A stretch of DNA of 64,000 nucleotides from Patescibacteria group bacterium (GTDB lineage: Bacteria; Patescibacteriota; Minisyncoccia; Phycocordibacterales; UBA918): NCBI GenBank assembly GCA_019750255.1, contig JAIEOU010000005.1, forward strand, positions 14,078 through 78,077. The letters are read 5' to 3'. The notes beneath the pieces were generated by a model. The model was not told the origin of the DNA and made no database searches. It was given only the letters and a program-made list of their open reading frames with translations. Positions 3,313 to 61,626 of the stretch are shown here, in pieces. The stretch's first letter is position 1, and every line of letters starts with the position of its first letter. The position numbers and the translations under genes are program-made.

Positions 3313-4530
3313 ATGCTTTTCAAATACATAGCAATCGATAAGGGGAATGTACAAAGGGAAGGCACCGTTGAGGCGGCCAGTATTGATGCCGCTATTTCAG
3401 CTGTACAAAAGCGTGGCTACACAGTAACCTCGATTGATCCAATTGACGAAAAAGGTTCGATAACTGATTTGCTTAATTTTGATTTTGCAATATTTCACAG
3501 CGTGTCAAACAAAGACATTGTTATTTTGTCTCGACAAATTTCCACGTTGTTTCAAGCGCATGTTTCACCACTGCGTATTTTCCGTCTCCTGTCGGCCGAG
3601 GTAGGAAATGCACAGCTGCAAATTGTAATGAATAAGATTGTTGATGACTTGCAAGCGGGGAGTTCAATTTCTCGGGCTTTGGCGGCCCATCCAAAGGTAT
3701 TCTCTTCCTTCTATGTCAACATGGTGCGGGCGGGGGAGGAATCGGGATCGCTCGAGAAATCCTTTGCCTACCTAGCCGACTACCTGGACCGTTCGTATGA
3801 AATTGTTGCAAAAGCCAGAAACGCTCTAGTCTACCCAGCCTTCGTGGTCACTATCTTTTTTGGGGTGATGGGCCTGATGCTCACCCTAGTAATTCCAAAG
3901 ATTGCCAAAATTTTGACTGACTCTGGGCAGGAGCTGCCGATTTATACAAAGATTGTTATTGGTCTTTCCGAGTTCTTAATTGGCTATCTTCCGTTTATAT
4001 TTATCGGTGTGGCTGCGACTGGGGTGGGGATGTGGCGTTTCGCCCGAACTGATGTTGGGCGCCGGACCATAGACGAGCTGAAAATCTCGCTCCCTGTTTT
4101 CGGTAATCTCCAGCGTAAGTTGTTGCTCACCCGCATCTGTGACAACCTCTCGACGATGCTTTCAAGTGGCGTATCGATGGTGCAAGCGCTCGAGGTGACA
4201 GCTGATGTGGTAGATAATACGGTCTTTAAAGAAATTGTTCAGTCGGCTCTCTTTGAAGTGAAGGGAGGACGGTCGTTTGCTGATTCCATCGCTGAGTATC
4301 CAGAAATTCCAACGGTTCTGTCACAAATGGCGCGCGTGGGTGAAGAAACCGGAAGTCTGTCGGAAATCATGACCACACTCGCCAATTTCTACCGACGTGA
4401 AGTGAACCAAGCAGTGGACACCATGATTGGGCTCATTGAACCAGCTATGATTGTGATGTTGGGTCTCGGTGTGGGTGTGCTCTTGGCATCGGTTTTGATG
4501 CCGATTTATAACCTCACCGGCAACTTCTAA
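3313..4530 (+). CDS. pilC: Type IV pilus inner-membrane platform protein PilC/GspF
   Basis: 405 aa with a duplicated GspF domain architecture and three TM segments. Sits between pilT and pilA. Confidence 0.85.
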   Translation: MLFKYIAIDKGNVQREGTVEAASIDAAISAVQKRGYTVTSIDPIDEKGSITDLLNFDFAIFHSVSNKDIVILSRQISTLFQAHVSPLRIFRLLSAEVGNAQLQIVMNKIVDDLQAGSSISRALAAHPKVFSSFYVNMVRAGEESGSLEKSFAYLADYLDRSYEIVAKARNALVYPAFVVTIFFGVMGLMLTLVIPKIAKILTDSGQELPIYTKIVIGLSEFLIGYLPFIFIGVAATGVGMWRFARTDVGRRTIDELKISLPVFGNLQRKLLLTRICDNLSTMLSSGVSMVQALEVTADVVDNTVFKEIVQSALFEVKGGRSFADSIAEYPEIPTVLSQMARVGEETGSLSEIMTTLANFYRREVNQAVDTMIGLIEPAMIVMLGLGVGVLLASVLMPIYNLTGNF

Positions 4531-4979
4531 GGAGAAACAGGAAGCGGCGAAGCCGCGACCATGTTTTCCTTATGCAGACGCCTCGTTACTTTCGAGCCTC
4601 AAAGCGAGGAAAGTAACGGCGGCGACCTGCGAAAGGAGACTTTGGATTGCTTCGCTGCGGCTCGCAAAGACGAATGCTGAATACGACTGCTTCGTCTCTG
4701 CGAGTTTACGAAGCAGTCCAGGGTTCCATACCCTTCTTTCGATTACATCACTAAGGCTCGCAAAGACGAAATATAATTTAACCCAATCCTACTAAGTAAT
4801 AGGTGCAGGGGCTTACGGTTTATACGGGAGGTTGTCCCCAGGTCTAGTTTTGTAAGCCGAAGCTGGTCGTATAATTGAGGCTAGCTACGCTACAACGTAG
4901 ATCTGTCGTTTACTATTCAGGTACACAGCTGATATCTGAATATAAAAAGACTTTATTTCAAAACGATTAATTTTAATTC

Positions 4980-5477
4980 ATGATCAAAACCATGCGGACC
5001 CGCGGTTTCACCCTCATCGAACTTCTCGTTGTAATCGCTATTATCGGTATCTTGGCCGCAACGGTACTTGCCGCCCTTGGTAACGCGCGAAGTAGCGGAA
5101 ACGACGCTTCGACGCAGTCGCAAGTTAATTCTGCCAAGGCTCAAGCTGAAGTGTATGCTAATGGTAATACAACAGCTCCCGGAAGTTATGTAGGCCTCTG
5201 TACTGCTGCGAACCCCAACAGCTTGGGTACACTCCTAACGGGTATCGCTCGTACTGCGCCCGGTACCGATGCTGCTGTATTGACTGCCACTGTACAGACT
5301 GCTAACACAGACGGTACTGGGGGTTCGATTAATTGCAGGGATGCCGCAACTACTTGGGTCTTGTCTGCGCCTCTTGCTCGCTCTACGGGAGGTTTCTTCT
5401 GTGCGGACAGTACTGGCTTTAGTGGCGTAAGAACCACGCCACTACCAGCAGCCAATACTGCTTGTCCAGCTTCTTAA
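4980..5477 (+). CDS. pilA: Type IV major pilin (prepilin, class III signal)
   Basis: N-terminus MIKTMRTRGFTLIELLVVIAIIGILAA matches the prepilin cleavage/methylation motif (G|FTLIE). Followed by a rho-independent terminator. Confidence 0.9.
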   Translation: MIKTMRTRGFTLIELLVVIAIIGILAATVLAALGNARSSGNDASTQSQVNSAKAQAEVYANGNTTAPGSYVGLCTAANPNSLGTLLTGIARTAPGTDAAVLTATVQTANTDGTGGSINCRDAATTWVLSAPLARSTGGFFCADSTGFSGVRTTPLPAANTACPAS

Positions 5478-5604: not shown

Positions 5605-6102
5605 ATGCTTAAACAAACTTATCAAAAGGGCTTCACCCTCATCGAACTTCTCGTTGTAATCGCTATTATCGGTATCTTGGCCGCAACGGTACTTGCCGCC
5701 CTTGGTAACGCGCGAAGTAGTGGAAACGACGCTTCGACGCAGTCGCAGATAAACTCTGCCAAGGCTCAAGCTGAAGTCTATGCGACGGGGAATAACAATT
5801 CTTATGATGGGGTTTGTACGATTGCAAGCGCCAATAGTCTGGGTCCATTGCTGACAGGAATTGTAAGGACAGCACCAGGAAACAACACTCCTGTTATTGA
5901 CGGAGCGGTACAGACAGCAAACACCGATGGTACAGGTGGGACTATTAATTGTAATGACGCGCCTACCGCCTGGGCAGTGTCAGCGCCGCTCAATCGATCC
6001 ACTGGCGGATTCTTCTGTGCGGACAGTAGCGGATTTAGTGGAGTTCGTGTGACGCCGTTACCGGCGAGCGGTGCTACGGGTAGAGTGTGTCCTTCATCAT
6101 AA
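5605..6102 (+). CDS. pilA: Type IV pilin, second tandem paralog
   Basis: Same prepilin N-terminus. The first ~150 nt are nearly identical at DNA level to copy 1 (4998-5150 vs 5623-5775), and the C-terminal globular part diverges. Confidence 0.9.
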   Translation: MLKQTYQKGFTLIELLVVIAIIGILAATVLAALGNARSSGNDASTQSQINSAKAQAEVYATGNNNSYDGVCTIASANSLGPLLTGIVRTAPGNNTPVIDGAVQTANTDGTGGTINCNDAPTAWAVSAPLNRSTGGFFCADSSGFSGVRVTPLPASGATGRVCPSS

Positions 6103-7730: not shown

Positions 7731-8402
7731 ATGATTCCAACAAAGCTTTCACAGCGACGCGGTTTCACTCTCATCGAGATGATTGTTTCGTTGGGAGTGT
7801 TTTCGGTGGTGGTGACCATTACGGCCGGGGCGCTTATTACCTTAATTGCAACAAACCAGCGCTTTCAGCGTGAGCAAAATACGACAACGAACTTGGCCTT
7901 TGCGCTTGACAGTATGACTCGTGAAATTCGCACCGGGTCAAATTTTTACTGTGCGACCGGCACGGGAACACCTTTTGATAATGGAGCCCATGAACATCTT
8001 TCTGGTGGAGTCATTGACGCAGGGGTTGGCTCATCGTTGCTACGGCGCGATTGTCCAGACGGAAGAAATGGAGAAAGTCTCCATGGGATATCTTTCTTTG
8101 AGGGGGGGAATAGCATCACGACGGACCCGGGGGTTAGGCGTATCCTCTATTATTTTGACCTGACGGCCGGTACTATCTATCGACGTGTCGGGGATGAAAG
8201 GCCAGAACAGATTATTTCAAATACCATTGAAATTGTTGATGCTGATATTTATGTTACCGACACCAACATTATGCTTGCCACACCTGCGGATACAAAACAG
8301 CCCACAGTAACCATTCATATCGAAGCTCGGGATCGTTCTGAGCCAAGTAGTGAGACGTACCTCATGCAAACGACTGTAACGCAGCGGTCACTTGATATAT
8401 GA
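7731..8402 (+). CDS. Minor pilin (PilW/PilV-like prepilin)
   Basis: RRGFTLIEMIVSLGVFSVVV prepilin N-terminus. Confidence 0.7.
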   Translation: MIPTKLSQRRGFTLIEMIVSLGVFSVVVTITAGALITLIATNQRFQREQNTTTNLAFALDSMTREIRTGSNFYCATGTGTPFDNGAHEHLSGGVIDAGVGSSLLRRDCPDGRNGESLHGISFFEGGNSITTDPGVRRILYYFDLTAGTIYRRVGDERPEQIISNTIEIVDADIYVTDTNIMLATPADTKQPTVTIHIEARDRSEPSSETYLMQTTVTQRSLDI

Positions 8403-8993
8403 AAAATCTACTACCCAGCTTATTACAGTTAACGAGACATAAAAATGGTTTTTCACTGGTGGAAACGCTGGTCGCAGTCTCCATCCTTCTCCTTGTTGTG
8501 GTTGGTCCCTTGACGATTACGTCGCGGACGGCGAAAAGTAGCACCTTTTCGAGTGAGCAATTGACTGCTCAATTACTCGCTCAAGAAGGACTGGAACTGG
8601 TGGAAAAAGCGCGTAATGACTACATTCTTGAGAATTTCACCAATGCAGCTAACGGTGGCTGGGATGCATTCACCTCAGGAAGTGGTGTTTTTTCACAGTG
8701 CTTTGACACCGATGGTTGTGGTATCGACATTGAAGATTCTGGTGACATTAACTTTCCATTAAAGGCATGTGATATCGCCGGGAGTCCAGATCCGTGCGCA
8801 CTCTACCAAGGAGCGGCAGGTGAGCGGGCGCGGTATTCGCACACTACCGGTGGTACCCTGACTCCGTTTACTCGCACTGTGCGCTTTTACTCGACCACAA
8901 ATCCTGATCAGATTCGCGTGGAATCAACCGTTACCTGGCGTACGGGTTCCCTGATTGCCAATCAACGGGTAGAGCTCGAGACGTATTTATTTA

Positions 8994-9010
<17 letters not shown>
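8399..9010 (+). CDS. Minor pilin (prepilin-type N-terminus)
   Basis: NGFSLVETLVAVSILLLVVVGP prepilin motif. Overlaps neighbours by 4 nt. Confidence 0.65.
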
Positions 9011-11673
<2,663 letters not shown>

Positions 11674-16940: not shown

Positions 16941-17558
16941 ATGATAAATAAAAGTACCTTACAAAAGTTATATGGTGAAAAAAAGTATTCTTCTGTTCAG
17001 ATAGCTAAGGAGCGTGGCTGTTCACCGGGACAAGTTAATTACTGGCTGTCTAAGTATTGTATTAAGAAGCGATCAATTTCCGATGCGGTATATGAGAAAT
17101 CTAACCCTGGTGGGGATCCATTTAGTTTACTTAAGGTGCGCTCTAAAGAGGAGTGGTTTTTGTATGGTCTTGGTCTGGGGTTGTATTGGGGAGAAGGTAA
17201 TAAAGCTAATCGCCTAGCTGTTCGACTTGGTAACACTGACCCTGGTCTTGTCCGAACGTTTCTTCGTTTTCTCTCGACCATTTACCGTGTTGACACCAGT
17301 CGTCTACGATTTGGTTTACAAATTTTCTCAGATTTAGATCCGGTGGAAGCAAAAGCATTTTGGTCAAAGGAACTTGGTGTAAGTGCTACGCAATTCCAAA
17401 AAACAGCTACAGTCTCTCGAATCCGCCGCGGAACGTACACGCATAAGGCTGCACATGGTGTACTCACTGTTTATTTTTCAAATACTAAACTTCGTGCTAC
17501 TATCATGGCCGCAATTGAAAAATTGCAAAAGCAACAGAACAGTACACTGCCGATGTAG
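16941..17558 (+). CDS. HTH + LAGLIDADG-like (single-motif) putative homing endonuclease/maturase
   Basis: N-terminal HTH (SSVQIAKERGCSPGQVNYWLSKY). The motif GLGLYWGEGNK aligns to LAGLIDADGS (G-L-x-x-G-E-G-N). Its stop lies 10 nt inside the intron-containing tRNA-Thr. Paralog of 53323..53982. Confidence 0.5.
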   Translation: MINKSTLQKLYGEKKYSSVQIAKERGCSPGQVNYWLSKYCIKKRSISDAVYEKSNPGGDPFSLLKVRSKEEWFLYGLGLGLYWGEGNKANRLAVRLGNTDPGLVRTFLRFLSTIYRVDTSRLRFGLQIFSDLDPVEAKAFWSKELGVSATQFQKTATVSRIRRGTYTHKAAHGVLTVYFSNTKLRATIMAAIEKLQKQQNSTLPM

Positions 17559-17819
17559 CTCAGCTGGTAGAGCACTTCCATGGTGGGTCGCATGACCTTG
17601 CCCGTGCTTGCGGTAACGTGAGCAACGAATCCCGAATAACGGTTAATAGCCATGTGTTGGCCAAGACCGTGGCCTTCTTTGCAAGAAGGCCCGAACGACT
17701 GCCAAGGGAGCACCAATTAAATGGTGCAAGATACAGTCTAGCCCCTCGATATGCACATAAATAAACGAGGGTGTAAGCGAAGGAAGAGGTCTCCGGTTCG
17801 ATCCCGGACATCGGCTCCA
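17549..17819 (+). tRNA. tRNA-Thr (GGT) interrupted by a ~195-nt group I-like intron between positions 36 and 37
   Basis: 5' exon GCCGATG-TAGCTCAGCTGGTAGAGC-A-CTTCC-AUGGU (17549-17584). 3' exon AA-GGAAG-AGGTC-TCCGGTTCGATCCCGGA-CATCGGC-T-CCA (17780-17819). Acceptor, D, anticodon and T stems all pair. The rule that the 5' exon ends in U and the intron ends in G is met only for a 36/37 insertion. Confidence 0.7.
17585..17779 (+). mobile_element. Candidate group I intron (IC3-like, same anticodon-loop position as the Azoarcus tRNA-Ile and Agrobacterium tRNA-Arg introns)
   Basis: R/S-like elements form P7: cgaacGACUGccaa and aagauaCAGUCuag (compare S consensus AAGAUAUAGUCC). It ends in G (omegaG) directly before the 3' exon. 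No ORF lies inside. Confidence 0.55.
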
Positions 17820-19368: not shown

Positions 19369-20052
19369 ATGATTTATTTTGATAACGTTTCTAAGCTCTA
19401 TAGCGACGGTCGGTCGGCGGCGCTTCAAGAAGTTACGTTTCAAATTGCTCCTAAAGAATTTGTATCAATCGTCGGGCATTCGGGTGCCGGAAAGACTACG
19501 CTTCTTAAAATGATTATTGCCGAGGATAGACCGACGTCTGGTCAGGTATATTTTGAATCACTTGATGTTCACAAGATTCCGCGTTCGCGTCTACCACACT
19601 ATCGCCGTAAGATTGGTACGGTCTTTCAAGATTTTAAGCTCCTGCCTAATAAGACCGCATACGAAAATATCGCCTTTGCCATGGAGGCTAACGGTCGCAC
19701 TGACGAAGAGATTGCCGAAAATGTTCCCCAGGCCCTTGCCCTGGTAGATCTCGACGACAAAGCCTGGAATTTTCCTAGTGAACTGTCCGGTGGAGAAAAG
19801 CAACGGGTCGCGATTGCGCGGGCGATTGTTAATCAGCCTGACATCATTGTGGCGGACGAGCCAACAGGTAACCTCGACCCCATCGCTACCTACGAGGTAG
19901 TACAGATTCTTCGTAAAATTAATGACCTTGGCACCACGGTGATCATGACCACTCACAATAAGGGAGTGATTGACGAGCTTGGCCGGCGCGTTATTACTAT
20001 GGACGAAGGTCGCATTGTTCGTGACGATGAGACAGGTAAGTACGTGCTATAG
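19369..20052 (+). CDS. ftsE: Cell-division ABC ATPase FtsE
   Basis: Walker A GHSGAGKTT, signature LSGGEKQR and Walker B. Followed by ftsX. Confidence 0.85.
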   Translation: MIYFDNVSKLYSDGRSAALQEVTFQIAPKEFVSIVGHSGAGKTTLLKMIIAEDRPTSGQVYFESLDVHKIPRSRLPHYRRKIGTVFQDFKLLPNKTAYENIAFAMEANGRTDEEIAENVPQALALVDLDDKAWNFPSELSGGEKQRVAIARAIVNQPDIIVADEPTGNLDPIATYEVVQILRKINDLGTTVIMTTHNKGVIDELGRRVITMDEGRIVRDDETGKYVL

Positions 20053-23060: not shown

Positions 23061-23185
23061 AAAGCAAAGCTTCCTTGAACGGCGCTCGCACAATGGATGT
23101 AAGTACTCTTCCATCCCCGTGCTCGCTTGTTCAAGTAGGACAGCGAACTGCCTTTCCATTAGACGGACGGCAGGGTGAAACGTAT

Positions 23186-23256
23186 TGGGATATCGTCTAA
23201 TGGTAGGACAGAGGCCTTTGAAGCCTTTAATTGGGGTTCGAATCCCTGTATCCCAG
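23186..23256 (+). tRNA. tRNA-Gln (TTG)
   Basis: U1-A72 acceptor (UGGGAUA/UAUCCCA), anticodon loop cuUUGaa, T-arm GGGGTTCGAATCCCTG and discriminator G. Resembles E. coli tRNA-Gln. Confidence 0.85.
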
Positions 23257-23262
23257 CTCATA

Positions 23263-23292
23263 GAAAAACAACCACTCTTGTGGTTGTTTTTC
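23263..23292 (+). terminator. Rho-independent terminator after tRNA-Gln (centre of a nested palindrome)
   Basis: aaaaacaaccac-tctt-gtggttgttttt. Confidence 0.8.
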
Positions 23293-23295
23293 GTT

Positions 23296-23321
23296 TATGA
23301 GCTGGGATACAGGGATTCGAA
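23296..23321 (-). repeat. Inverted 26-nt copy of the tRNA-Gln 3' half
   Basis: tatgagctgggatacagggattcgaa is the reverse complement of tRNA 23231-23259. Confidence 0.85.
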
Positions 23322-23433
23322 AAGCGCAGCAATGTGAGGAGCTTTTACTAAAGCGACGAACCAGCGAGCTGGGGTCGAGAGCACTTACTAGAATTGGAGC
23401 GTCAGCGAACAATTATAGTTAGTGACTCGTGAC

Positions 23434-23454
23434 CGAATCCCTGTATCCCAGCTC
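23434..23454 (+). repeat. Direct 21-nt partial copy of the tRNA-Gln 3' half, followed by a terminator-like hairpin
   Basis: cgaatccctgtatcccagctc, then aaaacacccg-tca-gggtgctttt (23458-23481). Confidence 0.8.
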
Positions 23455-23486
23455 GAGTAAAACACCCGTCAGGGTGCTTTTACGTA

Positions 23487-23537
23487 GTGCTGGGATACGT
23501 AAGGTCTGGGAGACCTTGCGTCAGGGATTCGAAACCC
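23487..23537 (-). repeat. Second inverted tRNA-Gln 3' fragment, split by a 23-nt palindromic insert
   Basis: gctgggatac + gtAAGGTCTgggAGACCTTgcgt + cagggattcgaa. Confidence 0.65.
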
Positions 23538-23710
23538 GATTGAGCATAATTTTGCGCGAAGTGAACTATATGTACGATTGCAATAGTCCCTATGGATTTT
23601 TAGAGCCCTTCAGCTCGTTGGATTGTAAAAAATATCGGTCTTAACTGGTGATACACTGATTACTCGAACAGGCACATGTTGATATTCTTTAAATCATACC
23701 GACTCCCACT

Positions 23711-25243
23711 TTGAAACTCATGAGACAAATATTATTTGGCTTTTTACTGCTCCTCGTTTTACCGCTTCCGTTTTTGGCCGATGCACACAGTAATGAAGAT
23801 TTAGAACCGGTCACAATTATAATGACCGAACGCGGCTATGATGTAAAAACTTTAGAAATTGAAGTCGGGCAAAGGGTCATATTTAAGAATGAAGGGTCTG
23901 AGGGCCTTTGGCCGGCATCAAACATTCATCCTACTCACGAAATATATTCAGAATTTGACCCGAAAAAACCTATTCTGCCTGGTCAGTCGTGGGAGTTCAC
24001 CTTCGATAAGGAAGGAGAGTGGAGATTTCACGATCACCTGCTTCCGACCATTGTCGGCACCATCAGAGTTGTGTCCTCAAATGATGTGAGTGTGGAGAGT
24101 AAAGAAGTTCACGGTGAGCGCTCTGGCGTCTTCAGTAAAGTAAAAACATTTTTTGTAAATTTGATTAACTCACTTTTTGCATCCAATCGGTCGACAAGTG
24201 AAGTCGCTGAAAACACTCTGAATCTGCCAACGGTAACAAGGGACACTAAGGAGATTTTTTCAAACGACGAACTCCTTAAGTCATATGTGCAAAGCTTTGG
24301 ACCTAAAGCGACTGTCGAGTATTTGCATGAGCTTTCAGCTGAGTTTGGCGACTGCCATCAAAGCGCCCACGCTGCTGGTCATTTTGCGTATGAACTTTAT
24401 GGTAGCGAAGCGTTTCAAGCTTGTAGCGCTCAGTGTCACTCAGGTTGCTACCATGGAGCAACCGAAGCCTATTTTGGTGAACATGGTACCAAGGACTTAG
24501 CAAAAAATTTGGGTATTATCTGTGGCTCAGTATCCAATCCATTTTTTAGCCATCAGTGCATTCATGGCGTAGGTCATGGTTTAACCGCCTGGACCAGTTA
24601 TGATGTGCCTGAAGCCCTTAGGGCCTGTGACTTGCTTCCAAGCGGGCATGAGTCTTGCTACACGGGTGTTTTTATGGAAAACGTAGTTGGTGGAATTGCT
24701 AAAGATGAAGCAAAAAACAGTGAGGAAACTGCCCATGTTACCCAATACCTAAGTCAAGACCCGCAGTTTCCCTGCACTGTGGTAGATGAGAAATATAAAG
24801 CTTCATGTTACATATTCCAAACGTCTCGAATGGTCCAGTTGTATGATGGGGATTTTTCTAAGGTAGCTAAAGCCTGTCTTGCTGCTCCCGAGCTGTATCG
24901 AGCACATTGTTTCCAGAGTATGGGGCGTGATGTTGGTGGAGTAAATCGGGGAAATCCGAGCAGAGCGATTGCTGAATGTAAACATGTACCAGATGGAAAC
25001 TTCCGTAGTGATTGTTTGGTGGGGGCGGTACAAGATTCATTCTGGGACTCGTCAGGACACGATGTGGCCATAAATTTTTGCAAACTTTTAGTCGATAGCA
25101 CTGAAAAACATCACTGCTATAAAACAATTATTGAACGAGCGCCGCAGGTAATTGAAGCTAAAACCGACCGCCACATATTCTGCAATAAAGTTGAAACTCC
25201 TTTTCAGCAGGACTGTGCTGCAGTCATTGATCTAAACATTTAA
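23711..25243 (+). CDS. Secreted protein: cupredoxin-like N-domain plus degenerate Cys-pair repeat region
   Basis: Signal peptide (LLLLVLPLPFLADA). The N-domain fits a plastocyanin-like pattern (V.G..V.F.N...H...H...PG.S.EFTF..GE..FHDHL.P.IVG.I.V) but lacks the Cys ligand. The C-terminal ~350 aa carry about 8 Cys-x(n)-Cys/His-Gly modules. Confidence 0.5.
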   Translation: MKLMRQILFGFLLLLVLPLPFLADAHSNEDLEPVTIIMTERGYDVKTLEIEVGQRVIFKNEGSEGLWPASNIHPTHEIYSEFDPKKPILPGQSWEFTFDKEGEWRFHDHLLPTIVGTIRVVSSNDVSVESKEVHGERSGVFSKVKTFFVNLINSLFASNRSTSEVAENTLNLPTVTRDTKEIFSNDELLKSYVQSFGPKATVEYLHELSAEFGDCHQSAHAAGHFAYELYGSEAFQACSAQCHSGCYHGATEAYFGEHGTKDLAKNLGIICGSVSNPFFSHQCIHGVGHGLTAWTSYDVPEALRACDLLPSGHESCYTGVFMENVVGGIAKDEAKNSEETAHVTQYLSQDPQFPCTVVDEKYKASCYIFQTSRMVQLYDGDFSKVAKACLAAPELYRAHCFQSMGRDVGGVNRGNPSRAIAECKHVPDGNFRSDCLVGAVQDSFWDSSGHDVAINFCKLLVDSTEKHHCYKTIIERAPQVIEAKTDRHIFCNKVETPFQQDCAAVIDLNI

Positions 25244-45428: not shown

Positions 45429-45436
45429 AGGCAAGT

Positions 45437-45726
45437 ATGATGATCGCCCTTTCTTCGTAAGAAGGTGGGGAGGAAAGTCCGAACACGTCCTGGGTGACCA
45501 GGAGTAGGGTAGCGGGTAACCCCCGTCCGCCGCGAGGCGCGAGGTGCGAACAGAGACGCCCAAAGTGAAAATGATGGGCTTCCTTCGTAAGAAGGAAGAG
45601 TCGTCACGGTAACGTGTCGGGTGAAACGGCAAAATCCTTACCTACGTGCAAGGCCGTGCTATCGGTAACGGCGGCAACGCCCGAACTGATAGAGAGCCGC
45701 TTGAGGGTGATGGTAACATCATTCCT
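45437..45726 (+). ncRNA. rnpB: RNase P RNA (bacterial type A, reduced ~290 nt)
   Basis: Universal P4 motif GGAGGAAAGTCCG. AGGGTAgCGGGTAACCCC, ACAGAGA, GGGTGAAACGG, and AGAGCCGCTTGA (the P4 3' strand) are also present. The 5' ATGATG pairs with the 3' CATCAT as P1. Confidence 0.8.
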
Positions 45727-45780
45727 AGGTATATGATCATCCTGTACGCATGTGCAGACAGAATTCGGCTTATATACATG

Positions 45781-45815
45781 AAACGCTGCGCCACTTAAGG
45801 CGCGGCGTTTCTTTT
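45781..45815 (+). terminator. Rho-independent terminator after rnpB
   Basis: aaacgctgcgcc-acttaa-ggcgcggcgtttctttt. Confidence 0.75.
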
Positions 45816-52133: not shown

Positions 52134-52211
52134 ATGTCTGATTTAAGACCTTACCAGATACTTTTGAGTTTACGAAAAAGTAGCGACAAGGTGTACTGGC
52201 ACCTGTAAGGT

Positions 52212-52318
52212 GAAGAGTGACTAGATGTCACTCTGCCAGACTCATTGAGAATTTTGCGAGTGGGCGAGCAAAAGTCCAATGAGTGGACAGGCCGCTGTAA
52301 GCGGAAGGGTGACTAAAA
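52212..52318. repeat. Dispersed ~100-nt intergenic hairpin repeat, family B, copy 1
   Basis: atgtcactctgcCAGACTCATTGag...CCAATGAGTggacag..ctgtaagcgg. A second copy is at 54821-54925 with conserved arms and a variable centre. Confidence 0.6.
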
Positions 52319-53322: not shown

Positions 53323-53982
53323 ATGGCAAGTCGCCTTACAAGTGAAGCCGTAGAAGAGATTATAAACTTAAGAAAAACTGGTCATAGTTTGCCAGAGATA
53401 CGGCGAATTACAGGTCGTTCAAACGGTACCGTTTATAATTTGATCTCAAAAACTAATGTTCTGCCAGAATTCGCGTCACTTTTAAAATCAAAGCAAGGTG
53501 GTAGTAAAGAAAGGGCACGAATAGCATGGGAAAGTGCACGCTCTCATGCAAGCAGTATCATTCCCGAAATTTTTTCGCAACAGAGTATTCTTTTAGTGCT
53601 TGCGGCACTATACTGGGGTGAGGGGACGAAGCATGAGCTCAACATAATAAATGGTGACCCTTGTCTGCTACGCACAACCGTTATTGGACTTCGTGCGCTA
53701 GGCGTTCATGATGATGAATTCCGCGTTACGGTTAGGTTGTTTGGAAAGATGCCCGAAGTAGATGCTATAAACTACTGGTCTACAGCTGTTGATGTTCCAA
53801 AACACCAGTTCATAGGTATTGAACGATTGCCGGGTAACGAAAGTAAAAAGCTCCCTCGTGGAATGTGTCGTATCCGAGTTGCAAAAGGAGCAAAGTATTT
53901 CAAACTTATTATGAGTATGATAGATTTGATCAAATCTCAAAATTGCCCTGGTAGTTCAATGGATAGAACTTCGCACTCCTAA
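53323..53982 (+). CDS. HTH + LAGLIDADG-like putative homing endonuclease (paralog of 16941..17558)
   Basis: HTH SLPEIRRITGRSNGTVYNLISKT and motif LAALYWGEGTK. Its last 38 nt overlap tRNA-Arg, and its stop codon lies in the tRNA anticodon loop. Confidence 0.5.
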   Translation: MASRLTSEAVEEIINLRKTGHSLPEIRRITGRSNGTVYNLISKTNVLPEFASLLKSKQGGSKERARIAWESARSHASSIIPEIFSQQSILLVLAALYWGEGTKHELNIINGDPCLLRTTVIGLRALGVHDDEFRVTVRLFGKMPEVDAINYWSTAVDVPKHQFIGIERLPGNESKKLPRGMCRIRVAKGAKYFKLIMSMIDLIKSQNCPGSSMDRTSHS

Positions 53983-54037: not shown

Positions 54038-54331
54038 ATGAAAGACATCCCCGATGTGGTGACAAACGAGCAGCTAAAAACCTTGCTCGAGGAAAATAAG
54101 CGTCTTCTGTCGGAGAATAACGAAATGCTTCACAAGCTCCGTCGGGGAGCACTATGGGCGACCGTCTTTAGGGTGGTCTGGTTTGCCTTTATTGTAGGGC
54201 TTCCCATTGCTTTGTACTACATGATATTAGAACCTAACCTGGCGACGCTCGAGCGTGCCTGGGGAGTGATTGAATCAAGCGTGCAAGACGTATCTGGGTG
54301 GCAGCGTTTCTTTGATCAAGCGGGTTCGTAA
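54038..54331 (+). CDS. Hypothetical small single-pass membrane protein
   Basis: 97 aa. N-terminal coiled-coil-like region, then one TM helix. Confidence 0.45.
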   Translation: MKDIPDVVTNEQLKTLLEENKRLLSENNEMLHKLRRGALWATVFRVVWFAFIVGLPIALYYMILEPNLATLERAWGVIESSVQDVSGWQRFFDQAGS

Positions 54332-54476
54332 CCGCAGGAGAGGAGTGGTTGAAAATACTGTCAAAATAGGTACAATACTCCATACCGAAGTAGAGGTGCC
54401 TGCGTGGGTAAGAGGAAACTTACCCAAGCTGCATTCAAACAGAATGTATGCCTAGCATCCATTTCGGTTCTCATTT

Positions 54477-54549
54477 GCTTGGGTAGCTCAGTTGGTAGAG
54501 CATTTCCCTGAAGAGGAAGGGGTCGCCGGTTCGAGCCCGGCCCCAAGCA
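54477..54549 (+). tRNA. tRNA-Phe (GAA)
   Basis: GCTTGGG-TA-GCTCAGTTGGTAGAGC...anticodon loop cuGAAga...GCCGGTTCGAGCCCGGC-CCCAAGC-A. Confidence 0.85.
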
Positions 54550-54552
54550 CAA

Positions 54553-54594
54553 GAAAAGCGCCTTCGGGCGCTTTTTGCGTGCTTGGGGCCGGGC
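54553..54594. repeat. Terminator hairpin plus inverted 16-nt copy of the tRNA-Phe 3' end (nested palindrome)
   Basis: aaaagcgcc-ttcg-ggcgctttt, then gtgcttggggccgggc, which is the reverse complement of gcccggccccaagcac. Confidence 0.8.
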
Positions 54595-54671
54595 GTGAAG
54601 GGGGTCGGGGAAACAGTTGTTTCCCCGTGGAGGAAGGCAGTGAGCGACGTTAGGAGCGAGCGTTGGAAAAC

Positions 54672-54697
54672 CGTGGGTTTCCAAAGTGCCTGGGCCC
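54672..54697 (+). repeat. 26-nt direct repeat, copy 1 (cgtgggtttccaaagtgccYRggccc)
   Basis: A second copy at 55088-55113 differs at 2 positions. Confidence 0.7.
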
Positions 54698-54820
54698 TAA
54701 GCTATATTACAAACTAATGCACCTTTCGTCCGGGCTCGAACGCCGGAGCGTTGTCACGAGCGTGCTTCCTAGCGCGAGTGATCACGAGGCGCGTCCAGCG
54801 GTCGTAATGACCGTAGCGTG

Positions 54821-54925
54821 AGAAGTGAATAAATGTCACTTCGCAAGACTCATTGAGGCACTATATGAGCGGTAGCGAAATATAGAACCCAATGAGTGGA
54901 CAGCTTCTGTAAGAAGTTAGAAAAA
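54821..54925. repeat. Family B dispersed hairpin repeat, copy 2
   Basis: See 52212..52318. Confidence 0.6.
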
Positions 54926-54931
54926 GCGGGA

Positions 54932-54943
54932 CGAGCCCGGCCC
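54932..54943 (+). repeat. Direct partial copy of the tRNA-Phe T-arm/acceptor (cgagcccggccc)
   Basis: 12-nt identity to tRNA 54532-54543. Confidence 0.55.
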
Positions 54944-54961
54944 TAATATGTAACCAAGCCC

Positions 54962-55042
54962 TGGATTGCTTCGTTGCGACTCGCAAAGACGAGGACCTCG
55001 CCGAGTGGAGGTCGAGCGAGTGAGATAGATTGTGAGCGAAGC
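54962..55042. repeat. Family A dispersed hairpin repeat, copy 2 (ggattgcttcg..ctcgcaaagacga...cgaagc)
   Basis: Shares about a 30-nt core with 4643-4718, plus a half-copy at 4753-4776. Both fold as long imperfect hairpins. Confidence 0.6.
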
Positions 55043-55067
55043 TAAACAAAGTATGCACAAGAGTGAC

Positions 55068-55081
55068 CGAGCCCGGCCCAA
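55068..55081 (+). repeat. Second direct partial copy of the tRNA-Phe 3' end (cgagcccggcccaa)
   Basis: 14-nt identity to tRNA 54532-54545. Confidence 0.55.
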
Positions 55082-55198
55082 CATTCTCGTGGGTTTCCAA
55101 AGTGCCCAGGCCCGAAGCAAATGTATCCTACTAACTTCGAATAAAAAAATATGATATCCGCAAAAAGAAACCGCTCCTTTAGGAGCGGTTGTCTCGTA

Positions 55199-55711
55199 TT
55201 ACTTCTGTACCGCGTTTGTCCGAACTCTAAGCTGCGTACTCCTTTGCTTATCGAGCTTTGGTAGGCGAATCTCAAGCATGCCATGCTTTTCCTGTGCTTC
55301 TGCCTCGTCAATTACAATTTCTTCGGGAAGAAGAATCGACCTCGAGAAGCTGCCCCAGAATAGCTCCCGGTTCTGGTAGTTGTCTTCATGTGTTTCTTGG
55401 AACTCTTCGCGCACGCCACGAATAGTAACCATATCCCGGGTGATTGAAATATCTAAATCTGTTGGACTAACACCGGCCACCAGGGCGCGAATGACGATAG
55501 TGTCGTTTGTTTGGTACATGTCGACGGGAAGTTCGCCCTCTTGTGGGCTACGGGCTGCGCCGGGTTCGCTTTGCCAATTGTCGTCTTCGTCTTGGGTCTC
55601 ATCCTCGGCACTATCGTCGTCACCAAAATGGCGATTATCATCCAGGATGCGGTCGTAATCTTCGCCAGGTGTGGCGCCGGTGAGTCGTTCTAAGAATGAC
55701 GGTTTTTTCAT
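55199..55711 (-). CDS. Hsp20/alpha-crystallin family small heat-shock protein (second copy)
   Basis: Alpha-crystallin domain (DMYQTNDTIVIRALVAGV...MLEIRLPK). Overlaps the prsW stop, so the two are likely co-transcribed. Confidence 0.85.
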   Translation of the reverse strand: MKKPSFLERLTGATPGEDYDRILDDNRHFGDDDSAEDETQDEDDNWQSEPGAARSPQEGELPVDMYQTNDTIVIRALVAGVSPTDLDISITRDMVTIRGVREEFQETHEDNYQNRELFWGSFSRSILLPEEIVIDEAEAQEKHGMLEIRLPKLDKQRSTQLRVRTNAVQK

Positions 55712-56436: not shown

Positions 56437-56560
56437 GGGTGTAGGTATTGTAACAAGCGCGGCGGCCCTGTAGGGCCGCCGCGCTTGTGTTCTGGGGACG
56501 TGGCTATGATGTAGAGTAGCTCGCCACCGCTACTTTTTTAGTATTGAGACAGAACTCGAT

Positions 56561-56940
56561 TCCTTAGTAAGTCGCTGCCACTGGTTTTTTCGCTCCGAAG
56601 CTTAAAACCAGTGAAGCGATTACATAAAGAAAACATAGTCGGTACTTCGTACCTTCTTGTTTCTCCTTAGTAAGTCGCTGCCACTCGTTATCTCGCTTTG
56701 AATCTCGAAACGAGTGAAGTGATTTCACCACAAGGGTACTTCATTTTTATAGTCGCTAGGCTCCTTAAAAATTGGTCGCATAAGGAAAGTATAGTCGGCC
56801 TGTGGCCTCCTTACTTCTCCTTATTATTTCTGCACAGCAGCTCGCCGCCGCTACTTTCCTCGCTTTGATGCTCGAAAGTAGCGAGGCGCCTGCATAATCA
56901 AAATATAGTCGTAGCTGCGCTACTCCTTATTTCTGCACAG
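56561..56940. repeat. Tandem array of ~100-nt degenerate structured repeats, overlapping the valS 3' end
   Basis: Units begin at 56561, 56664, 56763, 56808, 56818 and 56924, each with tcctta. Every full unit has a 9-10-bp hairpin of different sequence but maintained pairing, then gtgaagYgatt, atagtcg and a mini-hairpin. Confidence 0.7.
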
Positions 56941-61263: not shown

Positions 61264-61478
61264 TAGTACAGGGTAGCGCGTAAGTGAGTGGAGTCAAGGA
61301 AGGGTGCGGGACTCGACCCGCAATCGCGGATTTTGTTGCGTCTTTAAGAGTAATTATTTACGGACTCGGTCACGAATCACTAAGTATATTTGTTCGTCTG
61401 CGACTCCAAATCTACTAAGTGTTCTTGACCACGGCTCACTGGTTCGTCGCCCAAGGGAAGGGGCGACTCACATCGCTG

Positions 61479-61504
61479 CGCCTTTCGAGTCCTGTGTCGC
61501 GCAC
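61479..61504 (+). repeat. Inverted, degenerate copy of the tRNA-Val 3' end
   Basis: The reverse complement gtgcgcgacacaggactcgaaaggcg matches 61553-61578 at 22 of 26 positions. A nested hairpin (gggtcatgc-aca-gcatgaccc) separates the two copies. Confidence 0.7.
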
Positions 61505-61553
61505 ATAAAGCAAAGAAGGGTCATGCTGTGCATGACCCGACTTATTGCTTTAG

Positions 61554-61626
61554 TGCGCGATACAGGACTCGAACCTGTGACCTCCACAATGTCAATGTGA
61601 TGCTCTACCAGCTGAGCTAACCGCGC
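61554..61626 (-). tRNA. tRNA-Val (GAC)
   Basis: The reverse complement is GCGCGGT-TA-GCTCAGCTGGTAGAGC...anticodon loop uuGACau...GGTTCGAGTCC...ATCGCGC-A. Confidence 0.85.

Follow-up and report, generated by a model that had tools for sequence, protein, structure and literature searches.

Several described systems share traits with the locus reported here. The REP/BIME mosaics and REPINs of Proteobacteria, mobilised by RAYT, are short ORF-less hairpin modules located past gene 3' ends and terminators, and form variable mosaics that are multicopy in each genome and turn over among strains. Islands and prophages that use tyrosine integrases to enter tRNA and tmRNA genes carry a direct repeat of the tRNA end starting at the T-loop or at the extreme 3' end, leave the tRNA intact and can form tandem arrays. 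Integron arrays (attI plus attC) and CTX-phage-type integrations of folded single strands are laid out as a site followed by spacer, inverted arm, variable structure and direct arm, and then by the next unit; integron arrays also keep one orientation, a strand-specific structure and unit-by-unit change. Group IIC introns insert just past intrinsic terminators in the orientation of the upstream gene and contain an internal complement to the upstream flank, and the omega-RNA of IS200/IS605 elements (TnpB) is a structured scaffold followed by about 19 nt equal to the flanking target DNA. GOLLD and ROOL are structured RNAs of unassigned function that lie next to tRNA genes, with co-transcription suggested (PMC5737381), and are the only two mentioned near tRNAs by Weinberg (2017; PMC5737381). 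The TIGR-Tas system, which occurs in CPR and uses dual guides, consists of 36-nt dual-spacer units with box C/D-like repeats and an adjacent Nop-domain gene (PMC12045711).

The locus lies in a stretch of 64,000 nt, hereafter called the window. The 650-bp tract behind its tRNA-Phe gene is a degenerate array of approximately three units of a structured-cassette family that is widespread in Paceibacterota (CPR), with the following features:

54477-54550, + strand: tRNA-Phe(GAA) (ARAGORN; Rfam tRNA, 68.4 bits)
54551-54578, + strand: T1, an intrinsic-terminator-like hairpin (from the sequence; inverted repeat I1)
54579-54594, + strand: first inverted copy of the tRNA-Phe 3' end (exact reverse complement of 54535-54550)
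54596-54710, + strand: cargo module C (nhmmer E = 1.7e-24)
54706-54741, + strand: 3' half of hairpin h2 and second inverted copy, forming the left arm of unit 2 (inverted repeat I2)
54742-54819, + strand: 5' part of an M-type cargo (weak covariance-model match at 54726-54819, 5.8 bits, E = 9.2)
54818-54925, + strand: B domain, or "family B" (72.5% identity to 52205-52301)
54927-54946, + strand: D1, direct copy of the tRNA-Phe 3' end, right arm of unit 2 (direct-repeat family D1)
54947-55067, + strand: unit 3 cargo, comprising the "family A" hairpin and then a divergent P4 hairpin ending in GTGACC
55068-55081, + strand: D2, direct copy of the tRNA-Phe 3' end (right after GTGACC, as in canonical units)
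55088-55118, + strand: copy 2 of a 31-nt repeat (direct-repeat family D2; inverted repeat I5)
55169-55190, - strand: terminator of the convergent Hsp20 gene (terminator scan; Hsp20 confirmed by Pfam)

A canonical unit of the family sits directly 3' of a tRNA, on the tRNA strand, and consists in order of a terminator hairpin, X' (the tRNA 3' end in inverted copy), a structured cargo of about 115 nt and the tRNA 3' end once more, now as a direct copy. The arm X starts either in the T-loop or a few nucleotides before the tRNA 3' end, X' is often split by the small side hairpin h2, and the cargo may be M, M with the B domain, or C. The inverted copy is a constant part of every unit and not an incidental one. 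Elsewhere in the window, the family is represented by:

23258-23535, + strand: intact reference array behind tRNA-Gln (covariance model, 105.7 bits)
61361-61552, - strand: intact unit behind tRNA-Val (covariance model, 90.5 bits)
52134-52305, + strand: related module with a B domain, behind the protein gene lepA

The tRNA-Gln array comprises T1, a 21-nt inverted copy, M (23307-23441), a direct copy matching at 19/19 positions (23434-23455) and T2, after which comes a second inverted copy interrupted by a small hairpin. Its fold (-83.3 kcal/mol, z = -10.8) is closed by 20-bp arms. The tRNA-Val unit has the terminator, the inverted copy and M, with a direct copy shrunk to 7 nt, and its M is 77% identical to that of the tRNA-Gln array, with six compensated pairs. 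The lepA-linked module is kept in locus L006, where a direct repeat of the lepA terminator hairpin flanks it.

At tRNA-Phe, X is taken as the last ~20 nt of the gene, from the T-loop to the 3' end, and this sequence is duplicated downstream. T1 has its stem at 54554-54562 and 54567-54575, a UUCG loop, an A-run on its 5' side and a T-run on its 3' side, and was called on the minus strand by the terminator scan because the hairpin is bidirectional. The first inverted copy, made of the complements of the acceptor strand and T-stem, forms the outside of a palindrome whose arms are 33 nt long (54530-54562 and 54567-54599, 85% complementary) and that holds the UUCG-looped terminator inside; X, T1 and the inverted copy together form this single long palindrome. 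A second inverted copy, the T-stem and T-loop complement CCGGGCTCGAA, had been overlooked before and lies at 54723-54741. Among the direct copies, D1 matches X at 85% of 20 nt, with an exact 12-mer at 54932-54943, and pairs with 54730-54738, the fold closing through CCGGGCUCG/CGAGCCCGG, while the D2 region (55063-55082) matches at 70% of 20 nt, with an exact 12-mer at 55068-55079. A search of both strands of the window for GAGCCCGGCCC, allowing at most one mismatch, returned only three matches, all on the plus strand within 54533-55079, where about 0.9 matches are expected per 64-kb window. An earlier note on this tract, made from its letters alone, had listed an inverted copy at 54579-54594, two direct partial copies of the tRNA-Phe 3' end, a 26-nt direct-repeat pair and single copies of two hairpin families, A and B. 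Every one of these repeats is real and non-random: the inverted copy proved exact, and the two direct copies were recovered at 54927-54946 and 55063-55082.

Module C contains two hairpins, GGGGAAAC..GTTTCCCC and GGAAAACCGTGGGTTTCC, as well as copy 1 of the 26/31-nt repeat (54672-54702). Its homologues fill the equivalent slot behind tRNA-Gly (L152, L136) and tRNA-Phe (L056, L210), and two more copies occur in L031, neither adjoining a tRNA. Positions 54716-54749 are 94% identical to the h2/t' segment behind the tRNA-Phe of a close relative (L206). The M-type 5' part that follows shows a 3-bp P1' stem, a G-N-A/G-A internal loop, hairpin P2 and a P4 stump, with these landmarks correctly ordered and the same order of parts in L047 and L210. 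The B domain is an optional part of the long-form M cargo, with a GUAA loop closing the last of its three hairpins. It aligns with the lepA-linked copy over 102 nt (54813-54913 against 52205-52301), is 88.6% identical to L207, and has nhmmer matches in L047, L025, L013, L031, L068 and L148. It lies between P2 and P4 behind tRNA-Phe in L047, and in the equivalent internal position in L025, with no adjoining tRNA called.

In unit 3, the family A segment at 54962-54992 is 93.5% identical over 31 nt to 4643-4673, which has a second copy of its own at 4736-4770. The unit 3 cargo yields a covariance-model match at 54966-55075 (9 bits, E = 1.3), is 69% identical to the tRNA-Phe element of L063 and has an ortholog in L208; its fold is weak (z = -2.0), and the unit is therefore decayed. 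The 26-nt direct-repeat pair extends to 31 nt (54672-54702 and 55088-55118) at 90% identity, and copy 2 is a partial fragment of the second hairpin of module C; the nhmmer profile of module C matches 55088-55106. The 12 nt at 55112-55123 are 92% complementary to the tRNA-Phe leader and gene start, and this tail is kept in L208. The Hsp20 terminator is the boundary of the array and not a member of it. Families A and B do have copies elsewhere, in the window and in other genomes, as had been proposed, but they are not independent dispersed hairpin repeats: both, like the 26-nt repeat, are sub-domains or fragments of cargo modules that use one common slot.

The tract folds much better than shuffled sequence, more so on the plus strand (z = -11.1) than on the minus strand (z = -6.2). 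The earlier note saw no ORF behind tRNA-Phe; mechanical ORFs of 40-89 aa do overlap the tract, but they probably do not represent genes, since whole modules are inserted or deleted here between close relatives. A promoter scan detected no promoter-like site inside the tract. Four independent Logan assemblies span part or all of it at 99.7-100% identity, L001 covering nearly the whole tract from 54545 onward and L002-L004 only its 3' ~300 nt, while a fifth contig (L005) covers the upstream flank only. The tract is therefore no assembly artefact. Four Logan contigs break at 54545, 54887, 54888 and 54906, every break falling inside repeats, and such arrays disrupt short-read assemblies of CPR genomes.

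The covariance model identified 135 copies in approximately 0.95 Mb of DNA (the window together with related and metagenomic DNA), with no ORF-bearing copy among them. Where a tRNA lies within 150 nt (79 copies), 75 copies are downstream of it and in the same sense, and one is antisense. The family occurs behind at least 16 tRNA identities, behind tmRNA genes (which lie directly 5' of the copies concerned in L146 and L159) and, at times, behind protein genes. Across 80 related loci, the gene's own 3' end recurs downstream in inverted form for 49 of 186 tRNAs, typically near +50, and in direct form for 45 of 186, typically near +170. A cargo-only pattern returned at least 120 stretches in a metagenome scan; in the 80 loci, 46 of 82 matches to this pattern had a same-strand tRNA ending 75-140 nt upstream. 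In 1.17 Mb of related genomes the family accounted for 37 matches. Related DNA covered in this work amounted to about 1.7 Mb. Scanning viral contigs with the cargo pattern gave 0 matches, and BLAST against phage and plasmid collections gave none. Rfam 15, at gathering and permissive thresholds, returned only tRNA for the tract (54300-55400), the tRNA-Gln region (23150-23720) and the interrupted tRNA, non-tRNA matches at the tract and the tRNA-Gln region being hairpin noise far below the gathering score. The structural support of the family equals that of curated RNA families, the family itself is absent from Rfam, and a literature search found no description of it. Two loci with near-identical cargo pairs, L119 and L146, were considered as the site of an autonomous parent element and turned out to be a segmental duplication and a tmRNA context, respectively. 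An ORF with a helix-turn-helix (HTH) next to tRNA-Arg was considered as a possible tRNA-gene endonuclease, but comparison with Pfam and PDB yielded no more than a weak match to an HTH.

The cargo is a conserved, orientation-locked fold of the tRNA-sense strand. Standard pairs fill 97.8% of its pair cells, 410 pair cells are changed on both sides (111 in shuffles), and the covariation score is 0.469, compared with 0.169 in shuffles and 0.03-0.08 in slid controls. One G.U pair is kept in 117 of 130 copies, and GUAA loops close B-domain hairpins. The cargo has only three helices, too few for a group I P1/IGS reading. Other structural readings were likewise rejected: a hammerhead-like core in the apical GAG..CGAA loop lacks the CUGA half, an anticodon-like loop in h2 has no U33, a kissing contact between the h2 loop CUGC and the cargo GCAG shows no covariation between the two, and in a retroviral-type primer-binding site the inverted copy would have to complement the CCA end, whereas it complements the genomic trailer. 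The length of the duplicated target varies between 4 and more than 40 nt, and arm starts cluster at two points, the T-loop and the extreme 3' end, which we take to match the sublocations used by tyrosine integrases in tRNA and tmRNA genes.

Behind tRNA-Phe, the orthologous regions of relatives vary in extent, from no more than a terminator through 349 nt up to approximately 880 nt. They are neither collinear nor of one length, and each repeat family recurs in the window and in other genomes. The core proposal of the earlier note, a landing pad or cluster of small structured elements, therefore stands, with copies of the tRNA 3' end delimiting the tract; the two options it offered, mobile elements or structured RNAs, are not exclusive, the cargo bearing the signature of a tRNA-sense single strand that folds. 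Close relatives (chosen by Hsp20 identity of 95%, 92%, 85% and 85%) have differing unit sets behind tRNA-Phe, which suggests that the tRNA-end copies are where units come in, drop out or are exchanged. In L206 the neighbouring cargo differs despite the 94% identity of its h2/t' segment to that of the window, and the orthologous arrays of close relatives differ in which whole units they carry, with cargo also replaced between arms that are conserved. One slot holds M or C in alternation (L152, L136), and C also occurs behind tRNA-Phe in L056. The nearest cargo relative in another locus lies behind a tRNA for a different amino acid in 59 cases and for the same one in 16. Copies within one genome or locus are mostly 50-79% identical. 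Exact-protein look-ups with two flanking genes returned near-identical strains only and no empty site. Serial integration is only one possible history: unit loss by recombination between tRNA-end copies explains the relatives equally well, an integrase is absent, and each unit measures just ~200 nt.

The family combines traits of the systems introduced above and departs from each of them. The mosaic trait of REP/BIME elements is present, modules M, B, C, A and h2 occurring in varying combinations behind genes, but the modules are larger (~115 nt) and multi-helix with covariation, and they are locked to tRNA and tmRNA 3' ends in a single orientation, framed by inverted and direct copies of the end of the neighbouring gene. 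The far-end direct tRNA repeat of tRNA-targeted integrative elements is found at 54927-54946 and 55063-55082, and at 19/19 positions in many relatives, whereas the units are ~200 nt long, carry an extra inverted copy of the site, share one cargo family across at least 16 identities and have no integrase ORF inside the element (650-bp tract, tRNA-Gln unit and tRNA-Val unit). Co-oriented units with imperfect hairpin sites beside a fixed site, as in integrons, are present (tRNA-Gln, L018, L152/L136; orientation 75 to 1), but only a terminator lies between the hairpins, with no gene cargo; the terminal structure that is variable in integrons is the conserved part here, and the arms, up to 21 nt long, are gene-specific with no common 7-nt core, their drifted direct copies being uncompensated. 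Unlike group IIC introns, the units lack ribozyme domains I-VI, any Rfam intron match and a reverse transcriptase, and are about one tenth the size. In comparison with IS200/IS605 omega-RNA, the scaffold has a second copy of the target, in antisense, at its opposite end, and there is neither an adjacent TnpA, TnpB or IscB ORF nor an Rfam match to the TnpB/IscB omega-RNA models. GOLLD and ROOL have no tRNA-derived arms and share neither sequence nor structure with the present modules (no Rfam match), which do have such arms, are far smaller and show no phage linkage. Miniature inverted-repeat elements (MITEs) share the inverted repeats (X'/X, up to 21 nt) around a short non-coding cargo, but here the repeats are the end of the neighbouring gene and not a family consensus, and neither a fixed-length target duplication nor an abundance of near-identical copies in each genome is present. 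A TIGR-Tas array was rejected, the units being ~200 nt long with a different fold.

Taking these results together, we consider it somewhat probable that the tract is a partly decayed array of ORF-less ~200-nt cassettes anchored on tRNA 3' ends, mobilised in trans and semi-selfish. It is possible, if rather doubtful, that the cargo is instead a host-useful small RNA or cis-acting RNA domain of tRNA transcription units, with the tRNA-end copies as pairing partners. X' and X might then fold into an acceptor/T-stem minihelix to which RNase P, RNase Z and the CCA-adding enzyme are recruited, giving a natural tRNA scaffold, or X' might pair with the tRNA 3' end in read-through transcripts and create a processing or decay site. 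The strong covariation, the conserved non-canonical features and the GNRA loops speak for such an RNA, as does the 75-to-1 orientation lock, which persists though inverted-repeat arms could permit flipping. So do the arms: mismatches between X and X' are G.U in 18 cases and A.C in 7, X' remains matched to the tRNA (where the direct copy has drifted, X' agrees with the tRNA at 68 positions and the direct copy at 11), and h2 sits exactly at the acceptor/T-stem junction, forming a tRNA-like three-way junction. Orthologous units also persist in distant relatives, and full direct copies often carry their own terminator downstream, in a gene-like manner. However, a canonical terminator stands between tRNA and cargo, the tract showed no internal promoter-like site, and a minihelix is not possible for about one third of the elements, whose arms are no more than short 4-12 nt stretches of the extreme 3' end, nor for another third, in which the direct copy is 7 nt only. 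Presence moreover varies between close relatives, many tRNAs have no unit at all, decayed copies such as unit 3 are tolerated, protein genes too are followed by these modules, and module C is found away from tRNAs.

That prophages or islands went repeatedly in and out at tRNA-Phe, the partial copies being old attL and attR sites with degraded island DNA between them, is extremely improbable and already largely refuted. Direct repeats from the T-loop to the 3' end are a textbook att signature and tmRNA genes are used too, but the units are ~200 nt long with no ORF remnants, many genomes carry the same cargo and inverted copy behind tRNAs of at least 16 identities, structural selection acts on the cargo, and the phage and plasmid collections and viral contigs gave no match. 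Passive replication errors, namely fold-back and template switching at the terminator and the TTCGAA T-loop that would yield inverted and direct duplications locally, with the modules then spread among loci by microhomology and neither a dedicated enzyme nor a function involved, are very unlikely to account for the array. They would fit the derivation of the arms from the local target, the junctions at the palindromic T-loop (TTCGAA) or at GTG/CAC microhomologies, the exact X + T duplicates that flank the cargo on both sides in arrays such as L152 and L018, and the mirror-image cases, where the left-hand tRNA copy is a truncated 5' one and the right-hand tRNA is intact. Passive copying cannot, however, hold the cargo fold through hundreds of compensatory changes, and it leaves the orientation lock unexplained.

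In the cassette reading, the X copies would be the points at which units are gained, removed or exchanged by recombination, in a layout X, T-X'-cargo-X, T-X'-cargo-X that forms a formal parallel to integron cassette arrays or to the CTX-phage-type integration of a folded single strand, and the cargo would be made as RNA from the tRNA side. In the tRNA-Phe tract, C may have become nested within a unit, after which deletions between X copies would have led to the present state, and the semi-selfish units, mobilised in trans, would have been inherited vertically for long periods. Several observations weigh against this reading. No recombinase, transposase or reverse transcriptase was linked to the units at the loci examined; the arms match the local tRNA across at least 16 identities, and a cassette with its own site should not retarget easily. 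The low identity of copies within one genome marks them as old, with no sign of a recent burst, and units kept at one locus across distant relatives (L016, L206, L210) fit the vertical inheritance of something useful. Since X' tracks the tRNA and not the drifted direct copy, an attC-like X'-cargo-X hairpin is not what is maintained; the terminator between tRNA and cargo means that co-transcription is not assured, and deletions alone can explain the differences between relatives. A more far-reaching version, which we regard as unlikely, is that CPR bacteria harbour a cassette system new to the literature, in which tRNA and tmRNA 3' ends would serve as attachment sites, ORF-less ~200-nt units would be captured, shuffled and lost whole via a folded single-strand X'-cargo-X, much like integron attC sites or the attP of CTX phage, the arms would be re-templated from the local tRNA, and the cargo would be a new structured-RNA class riding on tRNA transcription and processing.

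Despite the tiny, compact genomes of CPR bacteria, this lineage devotes several non-coding tracts of 300-650 bp per 64 kb to these modules. If the cargo is RNA, it would represent a new class tied to tRNA and tmRNA genes in organisms with scarcely known RNA biology. If the units move, any tRNA gene could be targeted and restored, with the arms copying the target, which would bear on how small mobile elements choose safe sites.

Each class of repeat described in the earlier note for the tract 3' of tRNA-Phe was recovered, starting with the exact inverted copy of the tRNA 3' end:

54477-54550, tRNA-Phe(GAA)
54579-54594, 16-nt inverted copy of the tRNA-Phe 3' end, exact reverse complement of 54535-54550

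This copy forms the outer portion of a palindrome whose arms, 33 nt each, surround a UUCG-looped terminator hairpin, and a second inverted copy, missed by the earlier note, lies at 54723-54741. The two direct copies are likewise real: GAGCCCGGCCC, searched on both strands with at most one mismatch, has three matches in the 64 kb, every one inside 54533-55079. The 26-nt direct repeat can be lengthened to 31 nt with 90% of positions identical, and self-comparison of the window located further copies of "family A" (4643-4673) and "family B" (52205-52301). The tract folds with z = -11.1 on the plus strand versus z = -6.2 on the minus strand. Four independent assemblies contain it, partly or wholly, at 99.7-100% identity, showing that it is not an assembly artefact.

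Self-comparison also revealed a four-part unit behind two other tRNA genes:

23186-23257, tRNA-Gln
61553-61626, minus strand, tRNA-Val

In both cases the order is a terminator hairpin (T), an inverted copy of the tRNA's own 3' end (X'), an element of about 115 nt (M) and a direct copy of that 3' end (X), the last immediately past a GTGACC motif. The two elements are 77% identical and show six compensated base pairs between them alone. Behind tRNA-Gln the pattern repeats as X T1 X' M X T2 X', and past the second terminator and inverted arm (23458-23700) lies a different, shorter cargo (CCGATTGAGC..hairpin..), resembling short modules behind tRNA-Val and tRNA-Glu in three related loci (L008, L011, L019) that end in GTACTG..CTGTAAG hairpins.

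The valyl-tRNA synthetase (ValRS) of the window has its best match at 83% amino-acid identity, placing it with Paceibacterota/Kaiserbacteria-like CPR. Across 80 related loci (1.17 Mb), 49 of 186 tRNAs are followed by an inverted copy of their own last 30 nt and 45 of 186 by a direct copy, usually near +50 and +170. Searching with an HMM trained on the two elements behind tRNA-Gln and tRNA-Val gave 24 matches, nearly all on the same strand and 30-110 nt 3' of a tRNA. A metagenome scan with a pattern describing the long hairpin of the cargo alone, and hence blind to tRNAs, returned at least 120 stretches; in the 80 loci, among the matches listed, 46 of 82 have a same-strand tRNA end 75-140 nt upstream. 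A covariance model derived from 48 copies matched 135 copies in about 0.95 Mb. A tRNA is no more than 150 nt away from 79 of them: 75 are downstream of it and share its sense, one is antisense and three are upstream. Copies within 120 nt of a tRNA represent 16 tRNA identities. Genes for tmRNA also serve as upstream neighbours, and rare copies follow protein genes (rplL in L156; also L086), with a left arm complementary to the end of the coding sequence. No match to the family was found in viral contigs, phages or plasmids, and no Rfam family matched the cargo. In the related locus L119, a segment of about 650 bp is tandemly duplicated (8350-9612). Both duplicates contain a full T-X'-M-X unit together with a short ORF and a degenerate tRNA-like 3' end, and their M copies are 97% identical.

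The cargo is a real, strand-specific structure. In the 135-copy alignment, which was fitted to the model but whose two pairs richest in double changes had been left free by the search pattern, 97.8% of pair cells show standard pairing, both sides have changed in 410 cells versus 111 in shuffles, and the covariation score is 0.469, whereas shuffles score 0.169 and slid controls 0.03-0.08. Irregular positions are conserved as well, among them a G-N-A/G-A internal loop, a U.U mismatch, a bulged A and a G.U pair that 117 of 130 copies share. An RNA in the sense of the tRNA is favoured by the GNRA loops, the conserved G.U pairs, a bias of G.U over A.C and the 75-to-1 orientation lock.

The arms begin at two preferred points, which coincide with the sublocations used by integrases within tRNA and tmRNA genes. 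Class I left arms are inverted copies from the T-loop onward, terminating in ...ATTCGAA, and class I right arms restart at CGAATCC, often matching 19 of 19 positions up to the tRNA end; class II arms comprise just the last 4-6 nt of the tRNA and a few trailer bases. The left arm is often divided by a small hairpin (h2), whose loop is usually CUGC; the division falls exactly where the complement of the acceptor gives way to that of the T-stem. Left arms of full length tend to accompany 7-nt right arms, and split left arms full right arms. Where right arms have drifted, the left arm still agrees with the tRNA (68 positions) rather than with the right arm (11), and mismatches between tRNA end and left arm comprise 18 G.U and 7 A.C. 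A few copies are mirror images, in which the intact tRNA is on the right and the left side has a truncated 5' tRNA copy.

Homologues in the arrays of relatives allowed the tract to be read module by module. The tRNA-Gly arrays of L152 and L136 have the order T X' M X T X' C X, where C is a two-hairpin module unlike M. Its homologue in the window (54596-54710) includes the first copy of the 26-nt repeat, the second copy being a partial C fragment. "Family B" is a domain of three hairpins that includes a GUAA loop; in L047 it lies between helices P2 and P4 of a long-form M cargo behind tRNA-Phe, and in L025 it occupies the same internal position. "Family A" and the hairpin after it, which ends in GTGACC, together form a divergent M that has an orthologue in L208 and resembles the tRNA-Phe element of L063. 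The tract accordingly resolves into the tRNA, T1, inverted arm and C nested at the h2 position; the 3' half of h2 with inverted arm, the 5' part of M with B (P4 lost) and a direct arm; A with a variant P4 and a direct arm; and a C fragment, after which comes the terminator belonging to the convergent Hsp20 gene. The arms of unit 2 still close it (z = -5.7), and unit 3 has barely any fold (z = -2.0). In the related locus L031, two C copies (4753-4858 and 19694-19821) lie far from any tRNA, so module C is not strictly tied to tRNA genes.

Close relatives were found via Hsp20 homologues (amino-acid identity 95% in L206, 92% in L207, 85% in L208 and L210). At tRNA-Phe, the window has a C/M2+B unit and then an A unit, L210 an M1 unit and then a C/M2 unit, and L206 a single unit with a different cargo (M1) and then an A-like tail, its h2/t' segment being 94% identical to window 54716-54749. 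L207 shares B, the direct copy at 54927-54946 and the start of A with the window (88.6% identity) and diverges beyond. In farther relatives the locus varies between a bare terminator (L010, L020, L074, L076) and several units (L012, L018). Change affects whole units, with the tRNA-end copies as boundaries, and inside conserved arms the cargo may differ. These loci differ in their unit sets, being neither collinear nor equally long, so the earlier suggestion of a landing pad or cluster of small elements is not refuted. Deletion between direct copies is enough to explain the differences among these close relatives, and accounts for them as well as the serial integrations that the earlier note invoked; any gain of units is putative. 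L206 also carries a phosphoribosyltransferase gene (4557-5063), absent from the window, between Hsp20 and the tRNA-Phe array.

Other parts of the window are similarly repeat-dense. The ValRS-PrsW spacer (56507-56939, about 430 nt; 7 nt only in L206) holds three hairpin units of about 100 nt:

56561-56624, ValRS-spacer hairpin unit
56664-56727, ValRS-spacer hairpin unit
56819-56884, ValRS-spacer hairpin unit

The unit ends repeat ctgtgcagaaataa, the last ValRS codons and stop codon, and the C-terminus reads ..WPVQK* in the window versus ..WPSN* in L206, which suggests that the insertion took the place of the original ValRS gene end. An additional copy of this repeat (4527-4633) supplies one unit to another spacer of about 450 bp (4531-4979), where family A is represented by a long hairpin (4640-4720) and by a second, partial copy (4736-4770), and where the minus strand gives a weak P4-like match (4748-4798). 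Next to it, two adjacent 165-aa ORFs (4980-5477 and 5605-6102) are 76% identical in DNA, which indicates tandem gene duplication. A B-domain module follows the protein gene lepA (52134-52305), whose terminator hairpin has the stop codon of the gene in its loop; the lepA module of L006 (15330-15540) has copies of this terminator hairpin on both flanks (aatcagactaaatgtctgat).

At 17549-17819, a tRNA gene missed by default ARAGORN and by Rfam has its anticodon loop split by an insertion of 195 nt; run with the intron option, ARAGORN assigns the gene as tRNA-Arg(GCG), and the insertion matched no Rfam intron family. The gene seems to carry an encoded CCA end, in contrast to tRNA-Phe and most other tRNA genes checked. 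Two paralogous ORFs (53323-53982 and 16941-17558; 33% identity over 73 aa, E = 4e-9) have the motif LYWGEG[TN]K in common and end within the 5' part of tRNA-Arg(CCT) and of this interrupted gene, respectively. With a weak N-terminal HTH as their sole Pfam feature and no PDB match, they could be homing-endonuclease-like genes next to tRNA genes. The window also encodes a class A bacterial RNase P RNA (45432-45784, 132 bits), so a processor of tRNA-like frames would be an ordinary RNA-based enzyme.

We searched Rfam 15 and the full-text literature and found no description of this family. The layout of a site followed by successive T-X'-cargo-X units is formally shared with integron cassette arrays and with CTX-type integration of a folded single strand. 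The nearest known systems are these integron/CTX-type arrays, REP/BIME mosaics, tRNA-targeted integrative elements, group IIC introns, TnpB omega-RNAs and tRNA-adjacent ncRNAs (GOLLD, ROOL); each has some features in common with the family, but failed at least one tested defining feature. That the family constitutes a categorically new cassette system seems improbable to us. Several findings speak against a simple cassette model: no recombinase, transposase or reverse transcriptase is known to be linked to the units, the arms are tRNA-specific, the X'-cargo-X hairpin is not the thing maintained, the cargo is preceded by a terminator, and a promoter scan of the tract found no promoter-like site. 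The main rival, a small RNA useful to the host and set in a tRNA frame, is a serious though rather doubtful candidate.

Related cargos are not grouped by the identity of their tRNA. The closest relative that a copy has in another locus stands behind a tRNA for a different amino acid in 59 cases versus 16 for the same (about 9% expected at random), as illustrated by an Ala and a Ser copy that are 87% identical, and copies inside one locus are mostly 50-79% identical. Together, these figures speak for long-term exchange among tRNA loci and against a recent burst. On balance, we lean towards the tract being an array of semi-selfish structured cassettes on tRNA 3' ends, in which recombination at the tRNA-end copies would drive unit turnover and the cargo is probably RNA.
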